64,000 nt of DNA from Candidatus Saccharimonadia bacterium (GTDB lineage: Bacteria > Patescibacteriota > Saccharimonadia > UBA4664), in NCBI GenBank assembly GCA_035544015.1, contig DATKIP010000064.1:2131-66130 (forward strand), in the 5' to 3' direction. Both the position numbers and the translations under genes were made by a program. Of the stretch, positions 31,115 to 63,236 are shown piece after piece; the first letter of the stretch is position 1; each line of letters starts with the position of its first letter. The notes under the pieces are model-generated. The model did no database searches, was not told the origin of the DNA, and saw only the letters and a program-made list of their open reading frames with translations.

Positions 31115-31149
31115 GTCGTATCGGAAGTCAGAACTGCTTTGAGAAGCGA

Positions 31150-31295: not shown

Positions 31296-31300
31296 AAGAT

Positions 31301-32426: not shown

Positions 32427-32606
32427 ACCACTGAGCTACTCCGGATCACAATGTGGGCTGGCCCCATCGGGTGATACTACGAGATTATAGCGATGCGACT
32501 CGGCCTGGTCAATCACTGCGCAAAAAAGCGGCCAGAGATTACCTCTAGCCGCCGGGGGTGTGGAGACCGTTCGCTCCCATGCCCCCATCTCGTCTTGAAC
32601 GCGCGG

Positions 32607-33014: not shown

Positions 33015-33157
33015 ATTGCTCACCCTCTCGGTCAAGGTTCAGGACAAACCGCATTATAACATAAAACAAAGATAAATACTAGGATTCGACCCCACCAGAG
33101 TCCTGTATTATTTGGGATTTTCCCTATATAATGGGCAAACTTACTGAGGAGGTCGAA

Positions 33158-36100: not shown

Positions 36101-37909
36101 GTGCGCGCCGTCGACGCGGCCGGCAACGTTTCGCTCGATTCTAATGCGGCCGCTATCACCACCCCCACGCCCGACACCCAGGCTCCCAGCGTACCCACCG
36201 GCCTCACCGCCAGCGTCACCCTGCCCAACCAAGTTGACCTCAGCTGGACCGCCGCCGCCGACGACACCGCTGTCACAAAATACCTCGTGAAGCGAAACGG
36301 CGCCGTCATAGCTCAACCCACCGGCACCACGTTCTCCGACACCACCGCCACCGGCGGTAGCACCTACAGCTACGTCGTGGCCGCCGCCGACGCCGCCGGC
36401 AACACATCGGCCAGCTCCGACCCAGCCACCGCCACTGTTCCCGACACCACCGCCCCCACCGCGCCCGTGAGCCTCACCGCCACGGCCGTTGCCGGGCCGC
36501 AAGTCAACCTATCCTGGGGCGCCTCCAGCGATGCCGTCGGTGTCACCAGCTACCTCATCTTCCGCGACGGCCAACCCCTCGACACCGCCACCGGCACGAG
36601 CTACTCGGACGCTAATGTAGTAACCGGCACCACCTACAATTACACGGTCGAAGCCACCGATGCCGCCGGTAACCTCTCCGCTGCCTCCAACACCGCCACC
36701 ATTACACCTCCCGTGCCCGACACCCAAGCGCCCACCGCGCCCACCGGTCTCACCGCCACGGCTGTCAGCTTCACCCAGGTGAACCTCGCCTGGACCGCCG
36801 CTACCGACAACATCGCCGTCACCGGCTACCAAATCTTCCGCGACGGCGCCCAGGTCGGCACCACCACTGGCACCACCTATGCCGACACCGCCCTGCTAGC
36901 CGGCAACAGCTACGCTTACACCGTGCGTGCCACCGATGCCGCCGGCAACCTTTCGCCCGCGTCCAACACCGCCACGGCCACCACGCCCACGCCCGACACC
37001 ACGCCGCCGTCGGCCCCCAGCGCCCTCACCGCCACCGCGCCCACCGGCACGCAGGTCAACCTCAGCTGGACCGCCAGCACCGACAACGTCGGCGTCACTC
37101 GCTACAATGTCCTGCGCGGCGGAACCCAAATCGGCACCACTACGAGCACGAGCTATGCCGACACCACGGTCGCCGCCGGCACCAGCTACTCCTACACTGT
37201 GACTGCCCAAGACGCCGCCGGCAACGTGAGCGCCGCGTCCAACACCGCCACCGTCACCACGCCGGCCCCGGTCGTCACGCTCGCCGTCGACACCCAAGTG
37301 GCCGTCCACACCACCACGGCCGCTACCACCATCACCTCGCCGGCCTTCACCACCGCCGGCCCAGGCGAGCTCCTCGTAGCCTTCGTCTCCTCCGACGGCC
37401 CCAGCGGCGCCTCCACCTTTAGCTCCGTCACCACCACCGGCCTCACCTGGACCCTGCGCAAGCGCCAAAACACCCAGGCCGGCACCTCCGAGATCTGGAC
37501 CGCCCCGGCCGCCGCCAAGCTCACGAATGCCACGGCCAAAGCCACCCGCACCGGTTCCTACCGCAGCTCCCTCGTCGTCACCGCCTTCAAGGGCGCCGAC
37601 CTCACGACCATCGGCGCCACCGCCGGAGCCAGTGCCGCCACCGGCGCCGCCACTGCCAGCCTCACCACCACCCGCGCGGGTTCCTGGGTCTGGGCCGTTG
37701 GCAACGACTGGGACAACGCCGTCGCCCGCACGGTCGGTACCGCCCAAACCAAAGTCGATGAGTTCCTCACGAGCACCGGCGACACCCTCTGGGTCCAGCG
37801 CCGCACCGCCGTCACCCCGGCCGCCGGCACCGTTGTTACCATCAACGACACCGCCCCCACCGCCGACCGCTACAACCTGGCGCTCATCGAGATTCTGCCC
37901 GCTCCATAG
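33158..37909 (+). CDS. Giant secreted multidomain protein: (alpha/alpha)-toroid-like N-terminal domain, Ig-like domain, concanavalin-like lectin domain, 6 FN3 repeats, and C-terminal beta-rich domain
   Basis: Signal peptide after the GTG start (GAGGAGG SD); the ORF track starts at ATG 33131, right after TATATAAT. FN3 repeats ...TGLTAT..L.WTAATDNVAVTGYQ.FRDG.... The lectin-like domain is GGTWTGADIG...GTATFDNVSFTG. Confidence 0.75.
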   Translation: MNRLKRAAAIALIALLTLSGLTLPVPGAHASTPTGSSINTHTVMVDDQSKIVSWVPNQDQAYATVAASAWNFLLNNVPTDEHGLPGFYTHSYFNPDTRELSFNPHNPAGTNAMLTESALQYYQYSGDARVLTLVENSVTYHLDHGMTAAGDNWSNVPYASSDYGNTTYAGASRGNSDGVGDGVGVIEPDKVGELGVAFVQLYKITGEQKYLTAAINAANALASHVRAGNATQSPWPFRVKASDNTIKEQYTAHTISPIELLDNLIALGQGNTASYQSARTTAWNWLMQYPMQSNNWSTYFEDVDFHPGANNNTQMNSIMTARYLLQHPEYDANWETHVRGLIAWTEQNFAVPAFGANTIQEQADFAHPMGSHTSRYCDVNALLYQRTGDLAAKEKAYRACNWATYMARDNGVVIDGPEINNAWFTDGYGDFIRGMMVAMGGSPDFAPAGQNHLLQTSSVVTNVTYGPSQLSYSAFEAAGTEVIKVASAPTGVAINGVSLAQRSDLAAEGWTYDAAQSVVRVRRDTGKNVTIALNGTPTNLLPNVSLSTGATTYTAPASFNVTAAASDPDGTITKVEFYQNGALVSTVTTTPYTFAAAALPAGSYAFSARAYDNQNASSNSNTVSVTVNGASQGGTWTGADIGTTGVAGSTAAAGSAITVKGGGTDIWGTADSFQFGYQQMTGDGEIKARVVTQQNTDPWALAGVMIRDTLAPGAKETLAAMTPGHGAAFDYRTATGGSTTYVNGAAATVPYWMRLVRAGTTITASKSTNGTAWTSMGSATVSLGTTAYVGLAVTSHNPSALGTATFDNVSFTGQSTADTTPPVISGISVSGVNPNGATVSWTTSEPATSQIEFGPTTAYGSSTTLNSSLATAHTQVVPDLASATTYHYRVKSADAAANLATSADNTFTTPTPADTQAPSAPTGLTATAISFTQANLNWTAATDNVAVTGYQVFRDGVQIGTATGTTFSDAALTFNTNYTYTVRAVDAAGNVSLDSNAAAITTPTPDTQAPSVPTGLTASVTLPNQVDLSWTAAADDTAVTKYLVKRNGAVIAQPTGTTFSDTTATGGSTYSYVVAAADAAGNTSASSDPATATVPDTTAPTAPVSLTATAVAGPQVNLSWGASSDAVGVTSYLIFRDGQPLDTATGTSYSDANVVTGTTYNYTVEATDAAGNLSAASNTATITPPVPDTQAPTAPTGLTATAVSFTQVNLAWTAATDNIAVTGYQIFRDGAQVGTTTGTTYADTALLAGNSYAYTVRATDAAGNLSPASNTATATTPTPDTTPPSAPSALTATAPTGTQVNLSWTASTDNVGVTRYNVLRGGTQIGTTTSTSYADTTVAAGTSYSYTVTAQDAAGNVSAASNTATVTTPAPVVTLAVDTQVAVHTTTAATTITSPAFTTAGPGELLVAFVSSDGPSGASTFSSVTTTGLTWTLRKRQNTQAGTSEIWTAPAAAKLTNATAKATRTGSYRSSLVVTAFKGADLTTIGATAGASAATGAATASLTTTRAGSWVWAVGNDWDNAVARTVGTAQTKVDEFLTSTGDTLWVQRRTAVTPAAGTVVTINDTAPTADRYNLALIEILPAP
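35900..37270 (+). repeat. Tandem array of five near-identical FN3-encoding repeats (~270 bp each), plus one diverged copy upstream
   Basis: Recurrent DNA blocks CCGACACCCA(G/A)GC.CC...ACCGGCCTCACCGC and protein blocks DTQAPSAPTGLTATA...; it is intragenic. Confidence 0.7.
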
Positions 37910-46540: not shown

Positions 46541-47560
46541 ATGAAGTTTGTGCGACCCAAGAAGGTTGTATTTTGCAACAACAAAGGCGGAGTGGGCAAA
46601 ACCACTCTAGCATTTCATATTGCCGTTGAATTTTCCAAGAAAGGCTACAAGACTGCACTCATCGACCTCGACCCCCAATGTAACCTGACACTTCAGGCGC
46701 TGAGCCACACATTTTACGAAGATAATCTGTTTACCGAGAATCAGAGAACGGTTTATGACGTGCTCAAGCCAAAAATAGACGGTAGCGGCGATATAGACGC
46801 CTCTATTAATCTCACCCATGTGCGGGAGAATCTCTACATTTTACCCGGCGATATCCAACTTTCGCTTTTCGAGAATATACTGATTGCCAGCTATAATGAA
46901 GCCGCCGCAGGCAACCCGCGAGGGTACTCGGACACGAGCGCCATTGATCGCTACCTAAACGAAGTCGGCGCACGCGAAAAAGTCGATATCTTCATTATCG
47001 ATACCTCCCCGAGCTTAGGGGTTCTAAACCGAGTAATTTTCCTGGGGGCGGAATACTTCGTGGTTCCCGTGACTCCTGATAGCTACAGCGTCCAAGGTAT
47101 AAAAAACCTCGGCAGTGTTTTTGAGATATGGAAAAAGCAATGGAACAATACCGCCAAAGCAGCGGTAGTCGCAGGAAGTACGCCCAGCAATCAGGTCCTC
47201 AAGGGTGACGCCCTCTTTATCGGCTATATCTTGAACTCCTTCAATACATACGACAAGAAGATTGTTAAACGACAGCGGGATTGGACAGAAAACATCCCCG
47301 TAGAGGTCAAACAATATCTATCCGAAAAGCACGGCAGAAATGGGCTTGTAGAAAGGAGCTGGAGTACGCCACTTGGCTCGCTGCAAGATTATGGGCAGTT
47401 GCCTGCAATCTCTATGGAAAACCATTTGGCGATTCAGGAATTTGACCGTGCTAAGGTCCCCGAGCTCAATCTTAAGGGCACCAAGGAGCTACAAGAAAAA
47501 GCCGTCATCGAGATCGACGCCGTGAGTGATAGAATAATCAAGGTACTCGAAAGCTACTAG
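46541..47560 (+). CDS. ParA/MinD-family P-loop ATPase (orphan), low GC
   Basis: Deviant Walker A NNKGGVGKTT; IDLDPQ; ~47% GC against a ~65% genome background. Confidence 0.8.
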   Translation: MKFVRPKKVVFCNNKGGVGKTTLAFHIAVEFSKKGYKTALIDLDPQCNLTLQALSHTFYEDNLFTENQRTVYDVLKPKIDGSGDIDASINLTHVRENLYILPGDIQLSLFENILIASYNEAAAGNPRGYSDTSAIDRYLNEVGAREKVDIFIIDTSPSLGVLNRVIFLGAEYFVVPVTPDSYSVQGIKNLGSVFEIWKKQWNNTAKAAVVAGSTPSNQVLKGDALFIGYILNSFNTYDKKIVKRQRDWTENIPVEVKQYLSEKHGRNGLVERSWSTPLGSLQDYGQLPAISMENHLAIQEFDRAKVPELNLKGTKELQEKAVIEIDAVSDRIIKVLESY

Positions 47561-47638: not shown

Positions 47639-48151
47639 TTACTTCTGGCCGCTGGCCTTGTAGTCCGCGATGGCCTTGGCCACTTTGCCGTCATTCTTCA
47701 GGTTTTCCCAGAACAACACTTGCTGACGGCTCACGTACATTACATCCTCAGGTCCGTGGAGCTCGCCACCCAGCTTTGCCAGCGAGACCTGCTGGTTGTT
47801 GGCGGCCGCCGCGGCCGAGGTATCTTTGGGCTGCACCGTTTGCTGCACTTGGAGGTAGTAGATGTCGGTACACTTTACGTAGCTGTTATCGACTTTGGTG
47901 AGTTTACAGAAATACACCTGGCCGTTCGTCAAAAACACTGCCTGGTACTGCTTGCCTTTAACGCCGCTGTCGGCCGTCGCTGCGGCGTAGGCTTTGCTGG
48001 CAAACCATCCCAGCACCGTTAGGCCCACTAACACGAGCACTATGGCTACTACTTTGCTCAACATCCCCCCGCCACCACCGCTCTTGCGGGAGACCGCCGG
48101 CACATCGGCCAATCCGTTATCGGCTACCTGTCCTTGTCGTCGTACGTCCAT
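47639..48151 (-). CDS. Membrane-anchored hypothetical protein
   Basis: Start MDVRRQG; Gly-rich segment then TM VVAIVLVLVGLTVLGWFA; no recognisable domain. Confidence 0.45.
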   Translation of the reverse strand: MDVRRQGQVADNGLADVPAVSRKSGGGGGMLSKVVAIVLVLVGLTVLGWFASKAYAAATADSGVKGKQYQAVFLTNGQVYFCKLTKVDNSYVKCTDIYYLQVQQTVQPKDTSAAAAANNQQVSLAKLGGELHGPEDVMYVSRQQVLFWENLKNDGKVAKAIADYKASGQK

Positions 48152-48332
48152 ACGAAATCTATCTCCACCTAAACTTAGCGTTAGGATTATGTTACATGAG
48201 CACCAATAGAGTGTCCAGGCCGCGGCGTTCTCAGAATTGGCCCAAATTTTGCTTGGCGCGCGCCTCAACACCGGCTATAATCATAAGGACTATAGAGGTG
48301 ACCGTGAACAGCGTGAAAAGGGCGATCCGCTC

Positions 48333-49148
48333 ATGAAACTGCGCAGATTAACCGGCTTGGCGGTCGCCGCTCTCGCGCTGCTCGCCGCCGCACCGGCGCT
48401 GGCCAGCTTGTCGCAGGGCTATGCCACCACCACGGCGATTGCCGCCGGCAGCCTGGTGTCGCTCGATCCCAAGTCGAGCGGCAGCGTGGTGGTGGCCGAC
48501 CTCAACAACGTCGCCCGCCTCTTTGGCGTGGTGGTGCCGCCGTCGTCGGCCTCCATCTCGCTCAGCGGCACCGGATCCGGTCAGGTGCAAGTCACCACCA
48601 CCGGCAGCGCGCTCGTGCTCGTGAGCACGGCCGGCGGCGACATCCACGTGGGCGATTACATTACCATCTCGCAAATCGCCGGCGTCGGCCAGAAAGTCGG
48701 CACCTCGAGCGCGCGAGTCATTGGCACGGCCCAGGCCGACTTCAACGGCAGCGGTGACGGTGTCACCAAGCGCACCGTCGACGACGGCAGCGGCAAAAAA
48801 GAGGTTGCCATCGGCCAAATCCCCATCGTCATCGCCGTCTCCAGTTACACCTCCACCGACGGCAAGCAATCGTATGTGATCCCCAACTGGCTCCAAAACC
48901 TTTCCAACACCCTCGCCGGCAAGGCCGTTTCGCCCATTCGCATCATTATCGCCGGGCTTATTCTCATCGTCGCCATCATCAGCATTAGCGTGTTGCTCTA
49001 TTCGGCCGTGCGCAACAGCATTATCTCGATCGGGCGCAACCCACTATCCAAGGGCGGCGTCTTGCAGGGCATGTTGGCGGTCGGCGGGTTCGCCTTGTTG
49101 ATTCTGGCCGTCACGGCGGTAGCAATGTATCTGGTGATATCGAGGTGA
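48333..49148 (+). CDS. Secreted protein with a C-terminal two-helix hairpin resembling an ATP synthase c-subunit (loop GRNP) but lacking the conserved carboxylate; first gene of the atp cluster
   Basis: Signal peptide MKLRRLTGLAVAALALLAAAPALA. C-terminus IIIAGLILIVAIISISVLLYSAVRNSIISIGRNPLSKGGVLQGMLAVGGFALLILAVTAVAMYLVI. Its stop overlaps the atpF start (GTGA). Confidence 0.45.
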   Translation: MKLRRLTGLAVAALALLAAAPALASLSQGYATTTAIAAGSLVSLDPKSSGSVVVADLNNVARLFGVVVPPSSASISLSGTGSGQVQVTTTGSALVLVSTAGGDIHVGDYITISQIAGVGQKVGTSSARVIGTAQADFNGSGDGVTKRTVDDGSGKKEVAIGQIPIVIAVSSYTSTDGKQSYVIPNWLQNLSNTLAGKAVSPIRIIIAGLILIVAIISISVLLYSAVRNSIISIGRNPLSKGGVLQGMLAVGGFALLILAVTAVAMYLVISR

Positions 49149-49741
49149 ATATGGAAGTTCTCATTTTAGCAGTCGTAATCGTGATTATGCTCATCGTCGT
49201 AGTGGTGCAAAACGTTCAGCTGCGCGGGGCCACCAAAATTCGGGCCGCAGCCGCCGGTCAGCCCAAGCCCATCAAGATCTCCGAGCCCACCGCCGTCGAG
49301 CTCGAAGCCAAACTAAAAGCCGCCTACGAAGCCAAAATCGCCGAAGCGTCGCAGGGCTTTGGCGTCGACCTCAAGGCCACCTCCACGCGCCTCGGCGAAC
49401 AGGTCTCGCGCCTCACCACCACCGTGATCGAGGAGGAGCTCGAGGCCTACCAGAAGACGCTCGAGGAAGTCCGCCACGCCGCCACCGAGGCCATGGAGCA
49501 AATCCACCAAGCCGTCGAGCACCAGCGCGTGGAGCTCCACGCCGGCATGGAGGCCGAGCTGGCCGAAGAAAAAAAGCACCTGGCCGACAAATTCGACGCC
49601 AAAATCGGCGACGTCGTATCGAGCTATGTTTCCGAAGCCCTGGGCAGCGGCGTTGACCTCGGCGCGCAGATGCAGTTCATTCTCACGAGCCTCGAGGCGC
49701 ACAAAGAAGAAATCCGAAAGGACCTCCTCAATGGCATCTGA
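49145..49741 (+). CDS. atpF: F-type ATP synthase subunit b
   Basis: One N-terminal TM then a long charged coiled-coil (EAKLKAAYEAKIAEA...); its position in the operon fits. Confidence 0.7.
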   Translation: MNMEVLILAVVIVIMLIVVVVQNVQLRGATKIRAAAAGQPKPIKISEPTAVELEAKLKAAYEAKIAEASQGFGVDLKATSTRLGEQVSRLTTTVIEEELEAYQKTLEEVRHAATEAMEQIHQAVEHQRVELHAGMEAELAEEKKHLADKFDAKIGDVVSSYVSEALGSGVDLGAQMQFILTSLEAHKEEIRKDLLNGI

Positions 49742-50315
49742 ACCAATCCCCTCAACCACCTCCGCTGCACCCGCCATGCCGCCCGTAGCAACCGCGCCGG
49801 TTCCAGCGGCCACCCCCGTAGCGCCCGCCTCTGCGCCACCAGTATTCGAATTACCCCCCGCCATTTACAGTCCGGCGCTGCTCGAATCCGTCATCTACGA
49901 CCTCCAATATTACCTCGACTGGACCCGCCAAAACCAAATCCGCAAAACTGTGGGCGCCAAAGCCAAAGAAGAGCCCAGCCACTCGGCCGAAACCGTACTC
50001 GTCATTAAAGCCTGGCAGGGGAATGCGCCCGCCACCCTCGACAGCCTCGAACAGCTCCTCGCCTACCTGCGCGGGCTCAAATTGCCCGAAATTCACATCA
50101 TGCTAGCCGCCCTACCCAACCACGCACAGCGCGAGACCATCGTGAGTTGGTTCCACGCCAACGTGTCGCCGCGCCTCCTGCTCTCGTTCGTCGCCGACCG
50201 CAACTTGGGCGGTGGGCTGGTGGTGCGCACTCCCAACCGAGTGTTTGATTACACCTGGAAGCAGCAGCTGGTGGCCGGTCGCAGCAAAATGGCGGAGATA
50301 TTAAAACGTGTTTGA
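49731..50315 (+). CDS. atpH: F-type ATP synthase subunit delta (OSCP), divergent with Pro/Ala-rich N-terminus
   Basis: C-terminal OSCP motif RNLGGGLVVRTPNRVFDYTWKQQL. Overlaps atpF by 11 bp. The ORF-track start 49626 is rejected. Confidence 0.6.
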   Translation: MASEPIPSTTSAAPAMPPVATAPVPAATPVAPASAPPVFELPPAIYSPALLESVIYDLQYYLDWTRQNQIRKTVGAKAKEEPSHSAETVLVIKAWQGNAPATLDSLEQLLAYLRGLKLPEIHIMLAALPNHAQRETIVSWFHANVSPRLLLSFVADRNLGGGLVVRTPNRVFDYTWKQQLVAGRSKMAEILKRV

Positions 50316-51810
50316 TAATCCCAAATTTGCCAAACTAGTAGCCGACGGCCGTCCCACCGGCGAGGTCGTCGGCGTCGACCGTTTCCTCGTGACCATCCAG
50401 GGTATGGGCGGCGTGGCTATCAATGCGCTCATTTACTTCGACAACGGCTACCAAGGCCTCGTGCGCGAAGTCCGGGCCGAAACCGTCATGGTGCTCAACC
50501 TCAGCGCCGAATCCATCCCCATCGGCACCCTGGCCGTCATCGAGGCCGACGAAATCGTGACCGGGGTAGGGGACGCGCTGCTGGGCCGCGTGGTGAGCGT
50601 CACAGGGCAGCCGCTCGACGGCAAAGGTCCCATCACCTTCAGCCACTTCGACTCTGTCTTCAAGGTGGCGCCCGGCATCATCGAGCGCCAGCAGCTCACC
50701 GAACCCCTTACCACCGGTGTCGCCATCTCCGACCAACTCTTCCCGCTCGTCAAAGGCCAACGCATCGCGGTGCTCGGCGACAACAAAACCGGCAAATCAG
50801 CCTTCACCATGCAGCTCACGCTGGCCCAAAAAGACACCGGCCGCTTCGTGGTGCACGTGCTCATCGCCAAGCGCAAATCCGATGTCGACCGCCTCATCTC
50901 GAAACTCAACGAAACCGGTGCCATCTCGTACTGCACCATCATCGTAGCCTCGGTTTTTGACTCCCTCACCCAGTCGTACCTCGCGCCCTACATCGGCGCC
51001 ACCATCGCCGAGCACTTTTGGCACGGTGGCAAGGACGGCGTCATTGTGTACGACGACCTCTCCAACCACGCCAAAGTCTACCGCGAACTCTCCCTCTTGC
51101 TCAAAGTCGCCCCCGGCCGCGCCAGCTACCCCGGCGACATGTTCTATGCTCACTCCAGCCTGCTCGAGCGCGCCGGCCGCCTCGTCAAAAACGGCGCCAC
51201 GCTCGCCTCCATCCCCGTGGTACTCACGCCCAACAACGATATCACCGCGCCGCTGCCCACCTCCATCATGTCCATCACCGACGGCCAGCTCATCTTCGAT
51301 ACCGAGGCCTTCCGCGCGGGCATCCGTCCCGCCATCTCGGTGGGCCTGTCCGTCTCCCGCGTCGGCGGCGTCGGCCAAACCAAGCGCCAAAAGAAGCTCA
51401 CCGCCAGCCTCTTCAAAAAACTCGCCGCCTACCGCCAAGCCGCCGAATTTTCACACTTCGGCTCCGAGCTAGCCATCGAATCACGCGCCGATCTCGAGCT
51501 CGGCAAAAAAATCTACGAAGCCCTCAAACAACCCCCCGACATGATTTACTCCAGCAACGAGCAAGATCTCATCCTAGGTACCGTCATGAAAACCGAGGGT
51601 AAAATCACCATCAATATCGACAGTCTCAAGCGCAAAGCCAAAGAGCTGGCGCCCACCATGACCGCCGAATCCGACTGGGACGGCGCCATCGCCAGGCTGC
51701 TGGCTGAGGTTACCGTGCAAGCGGCTGCACCCCCAGCCGCCCCCACCTCCCCAGCCGCCCCCGGCCAGCCCCCAGCGCCGCCCGCCCCTGCCCCCGAGGC
51801 CAAAAAATGA
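50308..51810 (+). CDS. atpA: F-type ATP synthase subunit alpha, with a Pro/Ala-rich C-terminal extension
   Basis: P-loop GDNKTGKSAF (alpha-type GDRQTGKT) and alpha-subunit N-terminal beta-barrel. Confidence 0.85.
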   Translation: MFDNPKFAKLVADGRPTGEVVGVDRFLVTIQGMGGVAINALIYFDNGYQGLVREVRAETVMVLNLSAESIPIGTLAVIEADEIVTGVGDALLGRVVSVTGQPLDGKGPITFSHFDSVFKVAPGIIERQQLTEPLTTGVAISDQLFPLVKGQRIAVLGDNKTGKSAFTMQLTLAQKDTGRFVVHVLIAKRKSDVDRLISKLNETGAISYCTIIVASVFDSLTQSYLAPYIGATIAEHFWHGGKDGVIVYDDLSNHAKVYRELSLLLKVAPGRASYPGDMFYAHSSLLERAGRLVKNGATLASIPVVLTPNNDITAPLPTSIMSITDGQLIFDTEAFRAGIRPAISVGLSVSRVGGVGQTKRQKKLTASLFKKLAAYRQAAEFSHFGSELAIESRADLELGKKIYEALKQPPDMIYSSNEQDLILGTVMKTEGKITINIDSLKRKAKELAPTMTAESDWDGAIARLLAEVTVQAAAPPAAPTSPAAPGQPPAPPAPAPEAKK

Positions 51811-52667
51811 GTTCACGTTCACTGGGCATCGAGCATGAAGCCGGCCAGGTCGGCACCGTCTCCGAGCTCACGGGTATCTTCGAGTCCATCGCCTCCATGC
51901 GTATCGGCAAAATCAAAGACCGCGTCGCGCGCAGCCAGCAGTTTTTTTCCGAATTGTGGCAAATCTACACCCAGCTGCGGGTCGACCCCCAAGACCGTCT
52001 CACCGGCAAAAACAGCCCGACTCGCGACAAACCCAACGTCTTCCTAGCCCTCACGTCCGAAGGCGGTCTATCGGGCGACATTGACGGCCGCATCGTCAAA
52101 ACCGTGCTCGAAAACATCGATCCCACCACCACCGACCTCATTGTGATCGGTGCGCACGGCGCCACGCAATTCGTGCAAAACCACGCCAAGATCAAGCGTT
52201 ACTTCCGCCTGCCCGACATCGACCAAGCCATCGATGTCTCGCCGATCGTCGACGAACTCTTGGGCTACAAGCAACCCACCGTCTGGTTCCAGCGCTACGT
52301 GTCGCTGTCGGTGCAGGAAGTCGGCCGCATCGACCTCCTCGGCCGCGTGCGCACCCTGGCCACCGGCGCCGAAGCCGCCAAAACCACCGACATCATCAGC
52401 CCTCGCGACTACCTGTTCGAGCCCAGCGTCGATGACGTCGTACGCTATCTCGAATCGGTCATGATGGAAATCGCCCTCTCGCAGGTCATCCTCGAATCCC
52501 GCCTCGCCCAATACGCCTCGCGATTCACCGCCATGTCGGCGGCCAAAAAGCGCGCCAAAGAGCTCCAAACCCTCCTCGTCATGAACTACAACCGCGCGCG
52601 CCGCGGCGAGGCCGACGACCGCATCAAAGAAATCGTCAACGCTATGAACGCGCTGCACGCGAATTAA
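51807..52667 (+). CDS. atpG: F-type ATP synthase subunit gamma
   Basis: Gamma-like N-terminal helix (ASMRIGKIKDRVARSQQF) and C-terminal helix (NRARRGEADDRIKEIV). Confidence 0.8.
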   Translation: MSSRSLGIEHEAGQVGTVSELTGIFESIASMRIGKIKDRVARSQQFFSELWQIYTQLRVDPQDRLTGKNSPTRDKPNVFLALTSEGGLSGDIDGRIVKTVLENIDPTTTDLIVIGAHGATQFVQNHAKIKRYFRLPDIDQAIDVSPIVDELLGYKQPTVWFQRYVSLSVQEVGRIDLLGRVRTLATGAEAAKTTDIISPRDYLFEPSVDDVVRYLESVMMEIALSQVILESRLAQYASRFTAMSAAKKRAKELQTLLVMNYNRARRGEADDRIKEIVNAMNALHAN

Positions 52668-52753
52668 ATCGCTGCCCCCAATCCCGTATAATAATCGAAG
52701 GTGTCGCAACCCCGCACCAAGTCCCCGCACCCACGGCACAAGGAGAAAGCTCC

Positions 52754-53245
52754 ATGTCAACCGGCACGCAGCAAAAATCCAGGGGTCGAAGCGCGTCGAT
52801 CGCAAGAATCCTCGCAGTAGCAGTACTAGCAATCCTCGGCCTGATCAAAGGCAGAGCCATGCCGGATACGTCCTCAGATTCAGACGTTGTGTACCGCATC
52901 CAGGGCGCATGGATCCATGCAGGGACCGAGGAGCCCAACGAGATCAAGGTTCTCATCAACGGCGAACCGCCACCTCCAAGCCTCGGCGTTCCACCCGGAT
53001 ACACGAGCAAGGATGATCACGCCCTCCTGAGTGCTCTTATCTCTGTTCCTCCCGGAACCGTCCTCGAGGTGATCGTGACTGCCCGGAGCAATCCCCGATC
53101 CAATGAACCCCTCGAGCAGCTATGCTCTATTACGCGGCCCGGCGAAGTACAGCGACCCTCTTCGGGCCATGCCAACATTGGGGACTATGTGAAGCACATC
53201 GTGAGGGACGACCAGGGCCCACTCATGTGCACGAGGGTCGTGTAG
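52754..53245 (+). CDS. Small secreted two-cysteine protein, paralog 1 of 4 (unknown family) inserted within the atp operon
   Basis: Basic N-terminus plus hydrophobic anchor. Shared motifs with the three downstream ORFs: IxxLING, PxGTVLEVxVTA, first Cys (EQLCSI), C-terminal GPLMCTR. Confidence 0.55.
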   Translation: MSTGTQQKSRGRSASIARILAVAVLAILGLIKGRAMPDTSSDSDVVYRIQGAWIHAGTEEPNEIKVLINGEPPPPSLGVPPGYTSKDDHALLSALISVPPGTVLEVIVTARSNPRSNEPLEQLCSITRPGEVQRPSSGHANIGDYVKHIVRDDQGPLMCTRVV

Positions 53246-53288
53246 AGGCCCCGCAGTTTACAGGCGCTCCTTCGCCTGCTAACCAACA

Positions 53289-53324
53289 GCCCCGGGATGG
53301 CCCAACGTCGTACCATCCCGGGGC
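53289..53324 (+). promoter_or_regulatory. 12-bp perfect GC stem hairpin (GCCCCGGGATGG-N12-CCATCCCGGGGC) followed by an unusually AT-rich stretch
   Basis: Seen in the spacer between paralogs 1 and 2; no T-tract. Confidence 0.35.
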
Positions 53325-53438
53325 CAGCTCTCGTGCGCTACAATAATAATTTGCCTCAGCTTAAACACATTGATATCGTACTTTCTTGGGCACCCAAATA
53401 CCTCAGGTGCCGGCACCTACGCCTCCCAGAGAGGGGAC

Positions 53439-53912
53439 ATGCCGACTAGCGTTGGTCAAAGATCCGGAAACAAGGTCATACGAAGCCTCGGTATGGCTGC
53501 TGTCGTGGTAGCGCTTACCCTCGTGGCTGCGCATTTAGCTGGCAACAACGGCAGCGTTCAATCGCCTGAGATGCGCAAATACACCATGAAGGGCTCGTGG
53601 TTCAACGCCGACTTCAAGAACCAGAATCGCATCGATCTTCGCATCAATGGCAGGCGAGCCGGTGGCTCCGTCGGCTACTCACCGAGCGGTGGCACCGAAC
53701 ACACATACTCCGTCCCTGCCGGATCGGAGCTCACCGTGACGGTCACCGCCTCAGCCCTCGCTGTAGCCCCGACCGGAATCGAGGACCTGATCCAAAGCTG
53801 CTTCATCCTCCTGCCCAACGAATCCGAGACAACACCCACCCTGCCGCCCAACGCCGCGCGTCGCGTCGTGGACAACGACCAAGGGCCGCTCACCTGTAGT
53901 CGCACCGCGTAG
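53439..53912 (+). CDS. Small secreted two-cysteine protein, paralog 2 of 4
   Basis: Start MPTSVG after GAGAGGGGA; motifs RIDLRINGR, AGSELTVTVTA, QSCFIL, ESETTPTLPP, GPLTCSR. Confidence 0.55.
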   Translation: MPTSVGQRSGNKVIRSLGMAAVVVALTLVAAHLAGNNGSVQSPEMRKYTMKGSWFNADFKNQNRIDLRINGRRAGGSVGYSPSGGTEHTYSVPAGSELTVTVTASALAVAPTGIEDLIQSCFILLPNESETTPTLPPNAARRVVDNDQGPLTCSRTA

Positions 53913-53956
53913 GCCCACGCCAAGACAACCTCGCCGTACCTACCCACAGGAGCGCC

Positions 53957-54481
53957 ATGTCCAGGCAAGCTACCAGATCAAGGCCGATTCGAAGCGTCAT
54001 CGCGGCTGCCGGAGCGATCGCGCTAACCCTCGCACTGGCACATGTCATCGCCAACCCCCATCCGCTGGCAGGCCCCGGCATCGCAGTCAACCAGTTGCCG
54101 GACGGAGTGGCCATGGAGGACGGCACCGACGAGCGTGTCAAATACATCCTGCATGGTGTGTGGGGGTCCGCCTCGCGCACGGATACCAGCCGCATCCAGA
54201 TACTCGTCAATGGTGTCGTAGTAGCCGACCATCCCGCCGCGACGCCAGCCGGTGAACTCACACGGGCTTACCTCCTTTCCGCGGGCAATGAGCTTGAAGT
54301 AACGGTTCACGCCGTCGGTCGGTCGATTGAGGGCGTACCCGGGAAGAGGTTCAAGCTGCTGCAGCAGTGTTCGATCCTACGGGAAGGAGAAAACGAAACA
54401 ACCCCCCATCTGCCCCCGCGCGCTTTCCTGCGTGTCACCATCGACCCCCAGCCCCCTCTCACCTGCCACCGCACGACGTAA
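53957..54481 (+). CDS. Small secreted two-cysteine protein, paralog 3 of 4
   Basis: Signal peptide; motifs RIQILVNGV, AGNELEVTVHA, QQCSIL, ENETTPHLPP, PPLTCHR. Confidence 0.55.
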   Translation: MSRQATRSRPIRSVIAAAGAIALTLALAHVIANPHPLAGPGIAVNQLPDGVAMEDGTDERVKYILHGVWGSASRTDTSRIQILVNGVVVADHPAATPAGELTRAYLLSAGNELEVTVHAVGRSIEGVPGKRFKLLQQCSILREGENETTPHLPPRAFLRVTIDPQPPLTCHRTT

Positions 54482-54508
54482 CGTCGTCGCGACCCAGCCG
54501 GAGGCGCC

Positions 54509-55027
54509 ATGTCCAACAGTACACGGCAAAGCTCCAACCGTACGCGGCTGTTGGCGCTACTCGCCATTCCTCTGGCGCTACTCATTGCCCCATCTCTCGT
54601 CAAGCTCGCTACCGGCCCTACCAATACCCCAGATGGTTACCACGAGGTCTACCTACCCGACTCCGACCTACATGTTCTTGCCTTTCCGGGCATAGAGCAT
54701 CACCGAGAAGATGGCCGTATTTACGAGATGGGAGGGAGCTGGGCGGGGAGCTGGACGGGAAACGGTATCCAGTACAAGATCAACGGCGCTGTGATCAAGA
54801 CCCATACCGTTGGCAGAGCAAAAAGCCGCGACCATCAATTCGTCCTCGTCCCCGCAGGCACGGTGCTGGAGGTGTTGACCACCGCTGGCAGCCTCACCCA
54901 GCTCACGTCAAGATTCTGCGTCATCGCTGCGTTCCACGAAGATCCTCACAATGTACCGCCGCCTGCTGGCCGGTCGGTTGAAGGGCCAAGTCCGAGAAAC
55001 CCCCTCACCTGCATTCGGATAGCGTAG
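54509..55027 (+). CDS. Small secreted two-cysteine protein, paralog 4 of 4
   Basis: Signal peptide; motifs QYKINGAV, AGTVLEVLTTA, SRFCVI, NPLTCIR. Confidence 0.55.
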   Translation: MSNSTRQSSNRTRLLALLAIPLALLIAPSLVKLATGPTNTPDGYHEVYLPDSDLHVLAFPGIEHHREDGRIYEMGGSWAGSWTGNGIQYKINGAVIKTHTVGRAKSRDHQFVLVPAGTVLEVLTTAGSLTQLTSRFCVIAAFHEDPHNVPPPAGRSVEGPSPRNPLTCIRIA

Positions 55028-55108
55028 GCGCACCGCCACGCCCTGGGCGAACATCCACCCAGGGCGTGGCTCCCATGCCTCAAATCATGTAAAATAACAA
55101 TAAGCGTT

Positions 55109-56431
55109 ATGGCAACCACTACCGCAGCCCACACTGGTCGCATCGTCAGCATCCGCGGACTCATCGTGGAGGTCGCCTTCCAAGGGGAGGGCCGCCCGAA
55201 CTTGCGCGAAATCCTCACCATCGAGGGCCACCCCGAAATTCTGCTCGAAATCCAATCGTTCAACGAGCACCGCGACGCCATTTGCATCACCTACATGACC
55301 AGCTCGCTCGTCGCTCGCGGCGCCGCGGTAGTCTCCACCGGCACCACCATCTCGGTGCCCACCGGCGCCAAAGCCCTCGGCCGCCTGTTTAATTCCGTGG
55401 GCCAGCCTGCCGACAACCTCGAGCCCCTCGGCCCCGACGTACCGCGCCGTAGCGTATATATGAGCGCCGCCAGCTCACAGCTGTTCACCAACAAAGACGA
55501 GCTGCTCGAAACCGGCATCAAAGTGCTCGACTTCTTCACGCCCTTCGTGAAAGGCCGCAAAATCGGCATCATCGGCGGCGCCGGTGTCGGCAAGACCGTC
55601 CTCATCATGGAAATCATCAACAACATTGGCAAAGACCCATCCAAACTCGCCTTCTTCGCCGGCATTGGCGAGCGCATCCGCGAGGGCCACGAGCTCTACG
55701 AAACGCTCAAAGAGCGCGACATGCTCTCCGGCACCGCCATGTTTTACGGCCAAATGAACGAAAACCCCGCCATGCGCGCCATGGTCGGCATCACCGCCAC
55801 CACCCTCGCCGAATACTTCCGCGACGAAGAAAAACGCGACATCCTGTTCTTCGTCGACAACGTCTACCGCCACATCCAGGCCGGCAACGAGCTGAGCACC
55901 ATGATGGGCCAAATCCCGTCCGAGGGCGGCTACCAAGCCACCATTTTCTCCGACCTCAAGCGCTTCCAGGACCGCCTCTACTCCAACGCCAACGGCTCCA
56001 TCACCGCCGTGCAGACCATCTACGTGCCGGCCGACGACCTCACCGACCCGGCCGTGCAAGAAATTAGCTCCCAAATCGATTCCGTCATCGTGCTCTCCCG
56101 CGCCGTCGCCGAGGCCGGCATCCGGCCCGCCGTCGACCTCATCCGCACTAGCTCCAGCCTCGTCACCCCCGAAATAGTGGGGGATAGGCACTATCTGCTT
56201 GTCACCCAGGTGCAGGCCATCATGCAAAAATACGACTCGCTCAAGAACATCATCGCCATCATCGGCGAAAACGAGCTCTCTCCCCAAGACCGCGCCGACT
56301 ACCAAAAGGCCAAAAAGCTTATCGAATTCTTTGCCCAAAGCATGTTCGTCACCGAGAAGCTCAACGGCATCCCCGGCACCTATTTCTCCCGCGAACAAAC
56401 CCTCAGCGGCGTCGAAGAGATTTTGATTTAA
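55109..56431 (+). CDS. atpD: F-type ATP synthase subunit beta
   Basis: P-loop GGAGVGKTVLIMEIINNI; DELSEED-like region; full length. Confidence 0.95.
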   Translation: MATTTAAHTGRIVSIRGLIVEVAFQGEGRPNLREILTIEGHPEILLEIQSFNEHRDAICITYMTSSLVARGAAVVSTGTTISVPTGAKALGRLFNSVGQPADNLEPLGPDVPRRSVYMSAASSQLFTNKDELLETGIKVLDFFTPFVKGRKIGIIGGAGVGKTVLIMEIINNIGKDPSKLAFFAGIGERIREGHELYETLKERDMLSGTAMFYGQMNENPAMRAMVGITATTLAEYFRDEEKRDILFFVDNVYRHIQAGNELSTMMGQIPSEGGYQATIFSDLKRFQDRLYSNANGSITAVQTIYVPADDLTDPAVQEISSQIDSVIVLSRAVAEAGIRPAVDLIRTSSSLVTPEIVGDRHYLLVTQVQAIMQKYDSLKNIIAIIGENELSPQDRADYQKAKKLIEFFAQSMFVTEKLNGIPGTYFSREQTLSGVEEILI

Positions 56432-56454
56432 TGTCAAGAAAGGGGTAGAGCGAA

Positions 56455-56546
56455 GGAAAACATTAGTATCGCCGCGCGCGCCAGACAAAACAACGCCCCC
56501 ACGCAGCAAAGAGGTCGAGTTCGCAAGCAAGATACTAATGTTTTCC
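56455..56546. repeat. 16-bp perfect inverted repeat (GGAAAACATTAGTATC ... GATACTAATGTTTTCC) enclosing a 60-bp GC-rich loop, in the atpD-atpC spacer
   Basis: Seen in sequence. Confidence 0.6.
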
Positions 56547-56562
56547 GCAGCCACCACACCAG

Positions 56563-56820
56563 ATGGACAAAAAAACCAAGCGCTTCAAGCTCAAAATCCT
56601 CAGCCCCTACCAGACCTACTACCAAGGCGACGCCGTCTCGCTCAGCGCCGCCAACCGCACCGGCCCGTTTGATATTTTGCCCGGCCACATCAACTTTTTC
56701 TCATTGCTCACCAGCGGCGCCGTGGTGGTAAACACCGGCTTCCAGCGCCTCGAATTCCAGATCGGCCGCGGCGTGCTGCGCGTCAGCCAAGACAACGTCA
56801 CCCTGTTTGCGGACGTTTAG
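56563..56820 (+). CDS. atpC: F-type ATP synthase subunit epsilon, N-terminal beta-sandwich only (no C-terminal helical hairpin)
   Basis: Epsilon-like LKILSPYQTYYQGDAVSLSAANRTGPFDILPGHINF...; only 85 aa. Confidence 0.65.
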   Translation: MDKKTKRFKLKILSPYQTYYQGDAVSLSAANRTGPFDILPGHINFFSLLTSGAVVVNTGFQRLEFQIGRGVLRVSQDNVTLFADV

Positions 56821-60020: not shown

Positions 60021-63000
60021 ATGAAACCCCACCATAAGCTATCGTTGGCCTGTGGGGCAATAGTGCTTGTGCTGGGATTAATTAGCGCGCTGTTGCCGTC
60101 CAGCACGCGTAGTGCCGGGCCGTGCCCCTGCACTATCTGGTCCACGAACCCGTCGGTGTCGGTCATCAGCAATGGCCAGCCTTTGGAGCCGGGCGTAAAG
60201 TTCTCCGCCGACGCCGATGGCTACATCCTGGGCGTGCGATTTTACAAAGATACTGGTATGGGTGGAGCTCACGTCGGCCACCTCTGGGACAGCCTCGGCC
60301 ACAAGCTGGCCGAAGCCACCTTCGGCACCGAAACCAGCACCGGCTGGCAAACCGTCACCTTCGACAATCCGGTCAAAGTCACCGCCAGCACCCTCTACGT
60401 CGCCTCGTATTACGCCGCCGACGGCAATTTTGCGCGCACCTCCGGGGGGCTCAGCTCGGCCGTCGACGCCGGTACGCTCCACGTGCCTGCCAACGTCACT
60501 GCCGCCGCCCTCGACGGGTTCGGCGACAACCACAACGGTGTGTTTGCCGACGGCGTCAGCGCGTACCCCTACCAGAGCTTCGGTGGCAGCAATTATTGGG
60601 TGGATGTTGTCTACGACACCGTCGTGCCCGATACCGCCCCGCCGCTCGTAACCGTCACTCAGCCCAAGTCCTCGTCCTACGGCGTGCTCGCCGCCGGCCC
60701 CTACACGGCGCAGTTCAACGAACAACTCGATCCCGCCACCATCACCACGAGCACCTTCACCGTCACCGGCTCCACCGGCCCGCCGGTCGCCGCCTCAGTA
60801 TCGTACGACGCTGCCAGTTTCACAGCTTCCATCAAGCCGTCGTCGCCGCTGGCCCCCGGCGAGTACACCGCCAAACTGGCCGGCGGGGGAGGATCAGCCA
60901 TCACCGACCTGGCCGGCAACCATCTCGCCAGCGACTTCACCTGGACCTTCAGCGTGGGCGCCACCCCCGGCGGCTCACCCACCGCCGGCCCCGGTGGACC
61001 CATCCTCGTTATCACGTCGAGCACCAATCATTTTAGCGATTACTTCGCCGAAATCTTGCGCGCCGAGGGCTACAACAGCTTCGCCACCGTCGACCTTGCC
61101 ACCGTCGACGCCACCATGCTCGGCAATTACCAGCTCGTCGTGCTCGGCGATGTCGCACTGTCGGCTCCCCAAGCCTCCATGCTCTCTACCTGGGTGAACG
61201 CCGGCGGTAAACTCATCGCCAGCCACCCCGACAAAAAACTCGCCGGCCTGCTCGGCCTCACCGACGACGCCGCCACCCTCACCAACGCCTACCTCAAGGT
61301 CAACACCGGCAGCGCCCCCGGCTCCGGCATCGAGAGCGCCTCCATGCAATACAAAGGCCCGGCCGACCGCTACACCCTCAGTGGCGCCAGCTCCGTGGCC
61401 GACCTCTACACCGACGCCGCCACCGCCACCACCAAGCCGGCCGTCTCGCTCGCCACTGCCGGCAGCGGCCAGGCCGCCGCCTTCACCTACGACCTGGCCA
61501 AATCCATCGTGTATCTGCGCCAGGGCAACCCGGCCTGGGCCGGCCAAGACCGCGACGGCGACTCCCTGGATCGCTCCGACGACCAATACTTCGGCGCCAA
61601 AATCGGCGACGTCCAGCCCAACTGGAACGACCCCACCAAGCTCGCCATCCCCCAAGCCGACGAACAGCAACGCCTGCTCGGCAACCTCATCACCCAAATG
61701 ATGTCCACCGCCCTGCCCCTGCCGCACTTCTGGTATTTCCCCAAGGTGGGCATTAATACCCTGCCCAAGGCGGTATTAATGATGGCCGGCGACGACCACG
61801 CCACCGCCGGAGGCACTTACACCTCCATGGTGCGTCTGAGCGGCCTCAGTCCAGGCAATTGCTCACTCTTGGACTGGGAGTGCGACCGCATGACCTCCTG
61901 GTATTACACCAACACGCCCCTCTCCAATGCCGCCGCTGCCAGCCTGGCCGCTCAAGGCCACGAATTGGCCGACCACCTGTCCTTCAGCAGCGGCTGTGGC
62001 AGCAGCTACACCGAAGCCAGCTACCTCAGCTTTTTTGCCAGTGATCTGGGCGCCTTCCGGTCCAAATACACCAGCCTGCCCAGCCAGCGCACCAACCGCT
62101 GGCACTGTGTGCCGTGGGGCGATTGGGCCAGCCTGCCCAAAGCCGAAGTCCAAAACGGCGTTCGCCTCGACGCCGGCTATTACTACTACCCCACAGCCTA
62201 CACCACCGCCGGCGACGGCCTGTTTAACGGCTCCGGCCTGCCCATGCGCTACGCCGACACCGACGGCTCCCTCATTGACGTCTACCAGCAAGTCAGCCAC
62301 CTCGTAAATGAATCCGGCCGCCCCCACCCGGCCGACATCACTACCATGCTCGACAATGCCCTGGGCGCCAGCGGCTACTACGGCGTGTTCGGCACCCACT
62401 TCGACTGGACCGATAGCTACGACCGACAGCTCATGACCGCCGCCACGGCCCGCAACGTCCCCATGATCTCCGCCGACCAGCTCCTCACCTGGCAAGACGG
62501 CCGCGGCGCCTCCAGCCTCACCGGCTTTGGCTTTAGCGGCAACGAATTAACCTTCAACCTGGCCGCCGCCGGCGGCGCCACCGGCATGCAGACACTCATC
62601 CCCGCGACCGGCCCCACCGGATCAGTCACAGCCGTGTCGCGCGATGCTGTCACGGTCTCATACGGCACCGTGAATATTAAAGGGGTATCGTACGCCGTAG
62701 TCCCAGCCGCCCCCGGCGCCTACACCGTCTGCTATAACACCTGCAACCCGGCTCCCACTCCCACTCCCACGCCCACCCCTACTCCCACGCCAACGCCCAC
62801 TCCAACGCCGACTCCCACACCCACCCCAACCCCAACTCCAACGCCCACCCCGACTCCGACACCGACCCCCACGCCGACTCCAACACCCACACCTTCTGCC
62901 GCGCCCACAGCTACTGCCACCCCCACGCCCAAGCCTTCTTCCAAGCCCCAGAGCAGTGCCACGCCCGCGGCATCGCCGGCTGCGGCCGGGCCCACCGCGT

Positions 63001-63236
63001 CTCCCAGCCCGGAGGCCTCGGCCAGCCCGGCGCCCACATCTAGTGCCAGCCCCCAAGCCTCGCCCAGCCCCACCGCGTCCGCCACGCCCGCACCCGCCGC
63101 CGGGTCCGGCAACAACACCGTGCTCATACTAGGCATGGCCGCCGGCGGATTAGGCTTCCTCGGGCTCCTCATTTTCCTCGCGCTCTGGCTCCGCCGTCGG
63201 TCCAAAGGTCCCGACGACCCCGGCCCCCTGAGCTAG
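60021..63236 (+). CDS. Large cell-surface protein: signal peptide, DUF4082-like N-terminal domain, Ig-like domain, large central domain, (PT)n linker, S/A/P-rich stalk, C-terminal TM anchor
   Basis: Signal peptide; (PT)~35 repeat; C-terminal [29 protein letters not shown]. Confidence 0.7.
62750..62893 (+). repeat. (CCN ACN)n microsatellite-like repeat encoding a (Pro-Thr)n linker
   Basis: Seen in sequence; intragenic. Confidence 0.8.

Follow-up and report, generated by a model that had tools for sequence, protein, structure and literature searches.

The gene cluster at 48333-56820

This work concerns a cluster of F-type ATPase genes at positions 48333-56820 of a 64,000-nucleotide (nt) stretch of contig DATKIP010000064.1, which belongs to GCA_035544015.1, a metagenome-assembled genome (MAG) of a Candidatus Saccharimonadia bacterium. 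The whole 64,000-nt stretch is called the window below. An earlier note on this DNA had described an F-type ATP synthase operon in which the usual atpB-atpE pair, for subunits a and c, is missing upstream of atpF, and in which a gene for another kind of membrane protein stands in its place. This membrane protein, here called X, is the main subject of the text, together with the question of what an F1 head could do with it. The gene coordinates in that description all proved correct, but it had left out four small paralogs at 52754-55027, between the gamma and beta genes. The features of the locus are listed below (aa, amino acids).

47639..48151, minus strand: up170, a single-pass membrane protein with an outside domain of ~120 aa, transcribed divergently from X
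48253..48281, plus strand: sigma-70-like promoter match TTGGCG-17-TATAAT upstream of X (10/12, consensus match alone)
48333..49148, plus strand: X, 271 aa, with signal peptide, ectodomain, amphipathic helix and hairpin
48933..49142, plus strand: hairpin of X, two predicted transmembrane helices of F-type c subunit length and register
49035..49043, plus strand: predicted cytoplasmic loop R235-N236-P237 of X, which aligns with the R(Q/N)P loop of c subunits
GTG 49145 or ATG 49151 to 49741, plus strand: b-like stalk protein, by position and architecture
49731..50315, plus strand: divergent delta/OSCP, by a weak Pfam OSCP match and a family profile
50308..51810, plus strand: F1 alpha-like, with P-loop GDNKTGKS and arginine finger SVSRVG
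51807..52667, plus strand: F1 gamma-like, full length (Pfam ATP-synt E 3e-32, residues 14-283)
52754-53245, 53493-53912, 53957-54481 and 54509-55027, plus strand: four tandem small paralogs with an N-terminal anchor and C-terminal PLxC.R
55109..56431, plus strand: F1 beta-like, catalytic, with intact catalytic motifs
56563..56820, plus strand: epsilon, 85 aa, N-terminal beta-sandwich only

From X through gamma, neighbouring genes overlap or abut with only a few bases between them. The stop codon of X (TGA 49146-49148) runs over a GTG at 49145-49147, which is the GTGA overlap pointed out in the earlier note, and X and the b-like gene are, as read from the sequence, translationally coupled. The other possible start of the b-like gene, ATG 49151, is preceded by a Shine-Dalgarno-like GAGGTG. 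The pairs b-like/delta, delta/alpha and alpha/gamma overlap as well, and from the promoter-like match X looks like the first gene of the operon. The sequence of X is identical to that of an NCBI protein with the locus tag VMT30_03260. When Pfam family models are run on the locus, alpha, beta, gamma and the N-terminal domain of epsilon are recognised and delta is recognised weakly; X and the b-like protein find no family, bar a weak match of the X ectodomain to XM1_gp53.

The F1 part is divergent, but by its motifs it looks active and catalytically competent. In beta, Walker A (GGAGVGKT), GERIREG, FVDNVYR and PADDLTDPA are all intact, while its DELSEED loop has changed and it ends in a short C-terminus. 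Alpha has a short N-terminus, aligning with solved alphas from its own residue 10-18, which corresponds to their residues 20-36, and it ends in the Pro/Ala-rich C-terminal tail that had been described before. The same can be said of epsilon, whose C-terminal inhibitory helices are missing as described, and of delta, for which only the C-terminal OSCP part is matched and a Pro/Ala-rich N-terminus is present. Against Pfam OSCP (PF00213), delta reaches 19.9-20.4 bits (E 6e-4) with a cut-off of 22.3, and a profile made from 12 sequences of its family matches delta/OSCP proteins of the PDB at E 2e-6, the match being confined to the C-terminal two thirds. Delta has retained its C-terminal domain and has a reduced N-terminal domain with a Pro/Ala-rich N-terminal extension. 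In the related loci L002 and L004 delta is 158-166 aa long. The Pro/Ala-rich ends of delta and alpha are lineage-specific extensions, and the idea that they are functionally central was rejected because relatives do not have them.

How far are these subunits from those of an ordinary ATP synthase? For each F1 subunit the canonical F1 model is the nearest one, and each score falls below the cut-off of the NCBIfam equivalog model: alpha 395.1 against 484.45 (TIGR00962), beta 450.4 against 462.85 (TIGR01039), gamma 92.2 against 194.45 (TIGR01146), delta 17.8 against 57.5 (TIGR01145), and epsilon 49.8 against 67.25 (TIGR01216), the last over positions 2-79 of a profile of 130. The identity of beta with its best counterpart in the PDB is 42%, and among PDB betas the beta of the window scores 383 bits with the best canonical one versus 279 bits with that of G1-ATPase. 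As for the b-like protein, the label atpF was justified as to position and architecture, one N-terminal transmembrane helix followed by a helix of ~170 aa, but not as to sequence: neither the protein nor its family profile matches a b subunit in Pfam (PF00430), NCBIfam or PDB profiles, and only generic coiled coils are found.

Subunits a and c were searched for with a c-subunit hidden Markov model (HMM) and with E. coli AtpB in phmmer, and by precomputed Pfam labels. Neither the cluster nor the 64 kb window nor the 3.5 kb past its 3′ end gave a match to subunit a (PF00119) or to subunit c, so that the atpB-atpE pair is missing upstream of the b-like gene just as the earlier note had claimed. 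The search was extended to 80 species-level genome loci anchored on beta and 80 metagenome loci anchored on X, and neither subunit was found in the 166 related loci overall (~2 Mb). The precomputed Pfam labels on the related contigs agree.

X as a possible relative of the c subunit

X belongs to a large family. A word-indexed search returned 268 homologs, of which 120 were listed as 65-100% identical, and those with names among the matches listed are all from Saccharimonadia or Patescibacteria. When a profile of X was searched against 1.84 billion cluster representatives, there were 485 matches with E<=1e-30 and 3480 with E<=1e-3; of the 150 matches listed, the majority are about 250-310 aa long and cover the profile almost from end to end. 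Identity among close relatives is 65-85%. By these sequence comparisons X is a real, large and constrained family and no chance open reading frame (ORF). Conservation was then read from 145 representatives that are 30-60% identical to the protein of the window. Only one block is invariant, G-R-N-P-L, which lies in the loop joining the two C-terminal helices, with R in 145/145, N in 144/145 and P in 145/145. The helices themselves have no conserved Asp or Glu, which bears out across these 145 diverse homologs the earlier claim that neither helix has the essential carboxylate. Position 249, near the cytoplasmic end of helix 2, is Q, E, R or K in the family and A in the window.

An AlphaFold2 model of X, built on an alignment of 133 sequences, has a mean pLDDT (predicted local distance difference test score) of 92.3. 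It consists of the signal peptide, a beta-rich domain (26-172), a short amphipathic helix (185-195) and a helical hairpin (201-235/237-270). The architecture proposed in the earlier note, an AXA-type signal peptide (aa 1-24), a beta-rich ectodomain and a two-helix hairpin with a GRNP loop, is reproduced by the model and the family alignment. As suggested there, the C-terminus was compared with solved structures, and the best matches of the predicted hairpin turned out to be F-type c subunits. The first is the c subunit of Chloroflexus aurantiacus (9itt_H; TM-score 0.84, root-mean-square deviation (rmsd) 1.6 A, 66 columns, 21% identity), followed by those of M. tuberculosis, spinach, I. tartaricus and B. 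pseudofirmus; within the 50 PDB hits listed, the matches of the hairpin are F-type c subunits. The Foldseek E-values are weak, 0.1-0.6, because the hairpin is short.

The resemblance of the loop to the RQP/RNP loop of c subunits, also noticed before, was examined by hhalign. The hairpin of X aligns with a c-subunit reference over 76 columns with no gap and with RNP placed on RQP (P ~0.0014). The local and global scores are 21.0 and 18.5, whereas 150 column shuffles give means of 9.3 and 3.2 and maxima of 15.7 and 9.8; reversed controls are surpassed as well. In genuine c-rings, as known from the genetics of the E. coli c subunit, the R(Q/N)P loop is the place where gamma and epsilon dock. Thus, X shares with the c subunit its N-out, hairpin, C-out topology, a gapless stretch of ~76 residues with the R(Q/N)P loop in register, the position of its gene just 5′ of the b gene, and a hairpin for which c is the best structural match. 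It differs in having no match at the level of HMMs, no ion-binding Asp/Glu, no GxGxG in helix 1, and a signal peptide and an ectodomain of 160-170 aa fused to the N-terminus. From sequence and model together we conclude that X is c-subunit-like at its cytoplasmic face, and it may have descended from a c subunit. By sequence it falls outside PF00137, and we conclude that it should not be able to carry ions as c does.

The ectodomain, a point missed by the earlier note, is phage-fibre-like in the model: aa ~25-184 are predicted to form a beta-barrel similar to those that anchor phage fibres. In the PDB, Foldseek relates it to phage capsid decoration proteins (Borrelia phage BB1 at E 2e-4, HFTV1, Sf11 and T1). 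Much better matches come from BFVD, a database of predicted viral structures, where E 2e-9 is reached (24% identity in that match; rmsd 3.0-3.4 A and 18-24% identity overall) with the N-terminal barrels of preneck-appendage, tail-fibre, Mtd_N and DUF2190 proteins. The fold is alike in these phage fibre anchors and in X, but X is a cellular membrane protein, has no PHROG match (neither does the b-like protein), and has no homolog in IMG/VR with its 2.9 million viral contigs. A prophage origin of X was considered and dropped, there being no viral homolog in IMG/VR. The core of the ectodomain (X-HMM positions ~59-150, E 1e-9) is also seen in a second protein encoded directly upstream of X in two related loci (L137, 2-787; L164, 1-1341), therefore this domain occurs outside the X architecture, too.

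Operon types, the giant surface protein and the neighbourhood

The beta gene was used to scan one genome per GTDB species, and at least 580 relatives were found, the best 80 of which were analysed; all of these 80 are Saccharimonadia. In 57 of them X lies directly upstream of the b-like gene, in the order X-b-delta-alpha-gamma-beta-epsilon, which is the outcome of the comparison with relatives that the earlier note had proposed. The remaining loci, apart from nine clusters without X to be considered below, are truncated. Among the 80 metagenome loci anchored on X, the order X-b-delta-alpha and so on is found in 38. In a neighbour-joining tree of beta, all betas of such clusters form one clade on a long stem relative to the canonical outgroup; X-b occurs in every subclade, and the X-less state is scattered inside one subclade. 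X-b is thus the ancestral state, from which X has departed several times, and this arrangement is, by these comparisons of sequence and gene order, the ancestral operon type in hundreds of Saccharimonadia species. The term 'remodelled enzyme' used in the earlier note fits such a conserved ancestral operon type, with F1 subunits below the equivalog cut-offs and a c-like X that has gained support; the enzyme has in fact been remodelled more deeply than was supposed there. One MAG, SMAG_U6217, has two complete X-type clusters with betas of different subclades (L050 on DASZYT010000004.1 and L069 on DASZYT010000001.1), which means either a mixed bin or a genome with two ATPases of this kind.

What about X outside the ATPase cluster? 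In ~20 of the X-anchored metagenome loci X stands alone, and wherever enough downstream DNA is available (19 loci) a giant ORF always follows it. By similarity the 25 giant ORFs that reach 1400 aa or more belong to one family, the longest being ~3300 aa. Those with a complete N-terminus directly 3′ of X or epsilon share a conserved start, MENxxQNT..., and are predicted to be N-in proteins with a cytoplasmic tail of 60-100 aa, one transmembrane helix and a huge repetitive part outside the cell. Two of the giant proteins were compared with Pfam and no domain was found, and an HMM test detected no X-like domain in giant proteins. The same family follows epsilon in 12 ATPase loci, and in L124, a contig of 632 kb, b-delta-alpha-gamma-beta-epsilon-X-giant are all arranged on a single strand. 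To put it shortly, X always adjoins ATPase genes, the gene of a giant membrane-anchored fibre-like protein, or both. By this gene linkage X is tied genetically to the giant surface protein, another point missed by the earlier note. The 64 kb window itself has no gene of the giant family. Stand-alone X-giant pairs are often located 3′ of parA-parB and a gene for a signal peptidase: in L136, L150, L151, L132 and L155 the pair is preceded by parA, parB and the gene of a signal peptidase I, and the X-fibre module therefore adjoins the chromosome partition locus in these five.

A related pattern is found in a preprint on the Pam pili of M. amalyticus, a cultured member of Saccharimonadia, in which X and the missing a and c are not described (10.64898/2026.03.03.709456). 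In the proteome reported there, ATP synthase beta is 13th and alpha 19th in abundance, and the enzyme could be of either kind. The accession numbers of alpha and beta are four apart, and extra genes would therefore lie between them, as in the window. No description of X or of this operon type was found in the literature searched in full text.

Members of the same class have canonical operons, too. S. epibionticum has AtpZ/I-a-c-b-delta-alpha-gamma-beta-epsilon, with a b that matches Pfam ATP-synt_B at E 1e-25 (PMC10633639 supplement); in rhodopsin-bearing Saccharibacteria a, c and b are consecutive genes (PMC9296517 supplement); and RAAC3 has a single copy of each of the eight subunits. It is to be noted that Saccharibacteria bacterium RIFCSPHIGHO2_12_FULL_41_12 (GCA_001790445) is counted with one c, two alpha, two beta, two gamma, one delta, two epsilon, one a and one b (Mahendrarajah et al., PMC10656485, Supplementary Data 4). 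A canonical operon together with a cluster of the present type would give exactly these counts, the type of the second set being presumed, because standard models see only alpha, beta, gamma and epsilon in a present-type cluster. We infer from this table, that is, from one genome, that the two enzymes coexist, and the cluster is probably a paralogous second ATPase. Papers on Saccharimonadia of soil and sludge also report F-type ATPases, whose completeness 'varied'.

Several neighbours of the core genes deserve mention. The four paralogs between gamma and beta are 28-33% identical in pairs and 139-174 aa long with the starts of the gene caller (163-180 aa as ORFs); by sequence they are small secreted or N-terminally anchored proteins. 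No homolog of them appears across 165 related loci, no match in Pfam or NCBIfam was found, nor any in PHROGs, where one of the four was searched. They are, by this comparison, a species-specific insertion in a gap that holds other insertions or none in relatives: L002 has a gene of 171 aa there, encoded on the other strand, and in L010 and L096 the gap measures 1.2-1.3 kb. This site between gamma and beta looks like a hot spot of insertion. Many related loci have a homolog of up170 immediately upstream of X, on the opposite strand, and in L017 and L022 the homolog comes after epsilon, on the same strand; up170, which has no match in Pfam, NCBIfam or PHROG, may be a further component of the system.

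Immediately upstream of the ATPase locus lies an orphan gene for a ParA-like ATPase (46541-47560, plus strand) in a patch of 51% guanine plus cytosine (GC). It is not at the same position in L002 and L004, therefore it was probably acquired horizontally. A stretch of low GC at 26000-32445 (46-55% versus ~62% elsewhere), which ends at a tRNA-Asn gene (32371-32445, minus strand) and includes an ORF (27164-27943) with helix-turn-helix-like, excisionase/MerR-like sequence, may be an integrated element. GC skew is negative (about -0.02 to -0.32) in 31 of 32 bins of 2 kb irrespective of gene strand, the only positive bin being 30001-32000, and the cumulative skew drops almost steadily; this points to a strong composition bias of the replication strands, with the entire window on one replichore. 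Two large predicted secreted proteins flank the region, one of 1592 aa (33131-37909, plus strand) and one of 1071 aa (60021-63236, plus strand). Neither is similar to the giant fibre family at E<=1e-5, and for the 1071-aa protein no Pfam match is recorded.

What the enzyme may do

Known systems can be compared before an interpretation is attempted. The canonical F1Fo (atpIBEFHAGDC) shares with the present cluster the order b-delta-alpha-gamma-beta-epsilon, its F1 subunits are the best database matches, and the catalytic residues are kept. The present cluster differs from it in having neither subunit a nor a c subunit with the carboxylate, in scores below the equivalog cut-offs and a beta only 42% identical to solved betas, and in an epsilon without C-terminal helices, a reduced N-terminal domain of delta and a reduced N-terminus of alpha. 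The N-ATPase reportedly described by Dibrova et al. in 2010 is said to be an alternate F1F0, atpDCQRBEFAG, in which a and a Na+-binding c are kept and AtpQ and AtpR are added. It is a second divergent F-type operon beside the canonical one in some genomes, as the present cluster probably is. However, a, the Na+-binding c, AtpQ and AtpR are all missing at the present locus, gene order differs, and scores are far from the N-ATPase cut-offs (beta 410 versus 752, alpha 325 versus 750; also 41 versus 282 and 21 versus 100).

The closest parallel in logic is found in mycoplasmas. F1-like ATPases reportedly described there by Beven et al. in 2012 and in later structural work are said to include Type 2, the gliding motor of M. 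mobile (MMOB1660/1670, 'G1-ATPase'), and Type 3, which is MIB-MIP-linked (MSC_0618/0619). They have alpha/beta/gamma-like operons without a or c and are paired with lineage-specific membrane proteins, as in the present case, and they coexist with or derive from a canonical F1Fo, as the present enzyme may do. The ATPase of M. mobile powers giant surface 'leg' proteins, and here a surface protein of 2000-3300 aa is genetically linked. Unlike the mycoplasma types, the present cluster has retained delta, epsilon and a b-like stalk, all in canonical order; it is partnered by X, which resembles a c subunit, and its host phylum is Patescibacteria. We know of no c-subunit-like partner such as X described for mycoplasmas. 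Scores with the mycoplasma families are low, too: beta has 390 versus a cut-off of 570 for MSC_0618 and 333 versus 850 for MMOB1670, and alpha has 313 versus 600 and 231 versus 520 for the alpha families. The parallel with the gliding engine of M. mobile is, by analogy, one of logic and not of ancestry.

Then, what kind of machine could be built from these genes? The reading that we favour, with about an even chance of being right, is that the cluster encodes a paralogous F1-like rotary ATPase which is not the proton-driven ATP synthase of the cell, X replacing both subunit a and the c-ring. The alpha3-beta3 head, catalytically competent and joined by gamma and a short epsilon, would be held by a peripheral stalk of delta and the b-like protein, and in the membrane sector X would take the place of subunit a and the proton-carrying c-ring. 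X would have kept the shape, the length and the R-N-P loop of c, by which it could dock the foot formed by gamma and epsilon; it would have lost the ion-binding carboxylate and acquired, outside the cell, a domain that resembles in its build the base of a phage tail fibre. By hydrolysing ATP, the head might then turn or strain the X assembly in the membrane, and the output would be mechanical work outside the cell, most plausibly on the giant fibre-like protein whose gene travels with X. With no carboxylate and no subunit a there is no known path for ion coupling, and therefore hydrolysis is the likely direction. It is probable that the enzyme spends ATP on work at the cell surface and does not make it. 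We infer the physical contact between X and F1, and with it ring formation by X, hydrolysis as the working direction, and the mechanical output.

Several points weigh against this reading. On the side of X, the reference for hhalign was made of 8 c-subunit sequences, and the hhalign probability is only 7-19%; at E<=10 the hairpin finds no ATP-synt_C match in Pfam, and its profile finds nothing among PDB sequences at the same threshold. The GxGxG motif by which c-rings are packed is missing from helix 1. As a fold the helical hairpin is generic, and in a published table of structural annotations the c-subunit fold is matched by VirB2-type pilins as well. On the side of gene order, X also occurs without adjacent ATPase genes, as in L086, and in 9 of the 80 beta-anchored clusters a cysteine desulfurase gene stands in its place with no X within 10 kb. 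On the side of the enzyme, a stalk of the b-like protein and delta needs a stator in the membrane, none of which was identified at the locus; the absence of a and c covers the locus, the window and the related loci, and free-standing atpB and atpE could lie elsewhere in the genome; and soil Saccharimonadia reportedly carry proton-pumping oxidases, which a true synthase would serve.

The points on the enzyme would all suit an ordinary ATP synthase whose operon is split, as atp operons are in some other bacteria, with a and c elsewhere in the genome and X an unrelated or accessory protein such as an assembly factor or a surface-protein anchor. The scans leave the rest of the genome for such genes, subunit a would be the stator that the retained stalk implies, the oxidases would supply the proton gradient, and the separation of X from the ATPase in ~20 loci, together with the nine X-less clusters, would be expected. 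Even so, we regard a split operon as rather unlikely. Where a and c of Saccharibacteria are known, they sit in one complete operon with their own F1, and in GCA_001790445 two sets of alpha, beta, gamma and epsilon are accompanied by a single a, c, b and delta; for both of these reasons it is less likely that atpB and atpE for the present enzyme are encoded elsewhere. None of the F1 subunits reaches its equivalog cut-off, and the b-like protein cannot be recognised by sequence, whereas the b of S. epibionticum is found with ease. A split operon would also give no role to the invariant RNP loop of X and would not account for the translational coupling of X to the b-like gene.

A comparably small chance is given to X being a membrane base or chaperone of the giant fibre protein with no link to the ATPase, the adjacency being simply inherited and F1 working with the b-like anchor alone or as a soluble enzyme. 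The giant comes after X as regularly as the b-like gene does, the ectodomain resembles attachment domains of phage fibres, and the generic nature of hairpins and the missing sequence-level match to c subunits would then be no surprise. However, the X-b adjacency persists, with frames overlapping or closely abutting, across beta lineages that are only 56-60% identical. Where X has gone from the head of the operon, it can be found again just behind epsilon, as in L124, and the giant itself often follows epsilon. Moreover, the most conserved part of X is a cytoplasmic docking motif of the c type, which extracellular anchoring does not predict, and the coupling of X to a stalk gene is left unexplained. 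Very improbable, finally, is a decaying remnant of an ATP synthase that has lost Fo in a reduced genome and is heading for loss. It is true that Candidate Phyla Radiation (CPR) genomes often have incomplete sets of ATP synthase genes, that ATP synthase is dispensable in S. epibionticum, and that epsilon and delta are truncated here. On the other hand, reading frames are intact and catalytic motifs kept, the operon is conserved over at least 580 species-level hits, X is as similar among close relatives as stated above with 485 clusters at E<=1e-30, and alpha and beta rank high in the proteome of M. amalyticus, although they may be of either ATPase type.

If the favoured reading of a paralogous ATPase with X in its membrane sector is carried to its end, the machine would be of a new kind: an ATP-driven rotary or ratchet device in which F1 turns an ion-blind ring of X, whose outer domains grip or move a giant surface fibre for attachment, movement or attack on a host, and which evolved independently of both the gliding engine of M. 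mobile and flagella. Such a complete picture is doubtful, and we offer it as a possibility of low probability. Apart from that picture, what is new in the cluster is a c-like subunit that is without the carboxylate and is fused with a fibre-anchor domain outside the cell, F1-like ATPases without Fo being known from mycoplasmas.

What would this mean for the biology of Saccharibacteria? In metagenomic reconstructions they are routinely scored as having an 'F-type ATPase', from which proton-driven synthesis or pumping is then deduced. If most environmental lineages carry the proton-blind version, that deduction would be wrong for at least one of their ATPase sets, and the 'varied' completeness of F-type ATPases in CPR genomes from soil may be accounted for in this way. 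If true, the cluster would be a second independent recruitment of F1, after that of mycoplasmas, for a purpose other than ion coupling, and one in which a rotor-like subunit has been kept and modified, which makes the swapping of membrane partners by rotary ATPases directly testable. Together, the link to the giant fibre and the neighbourhood of the Pam pilus operon point to the apparatus of epibiotic attachment, the least understood part of CPR biology, and M. amalyticus, a cultured relative with very high levels of alpha and beta, offers a route to experiments.

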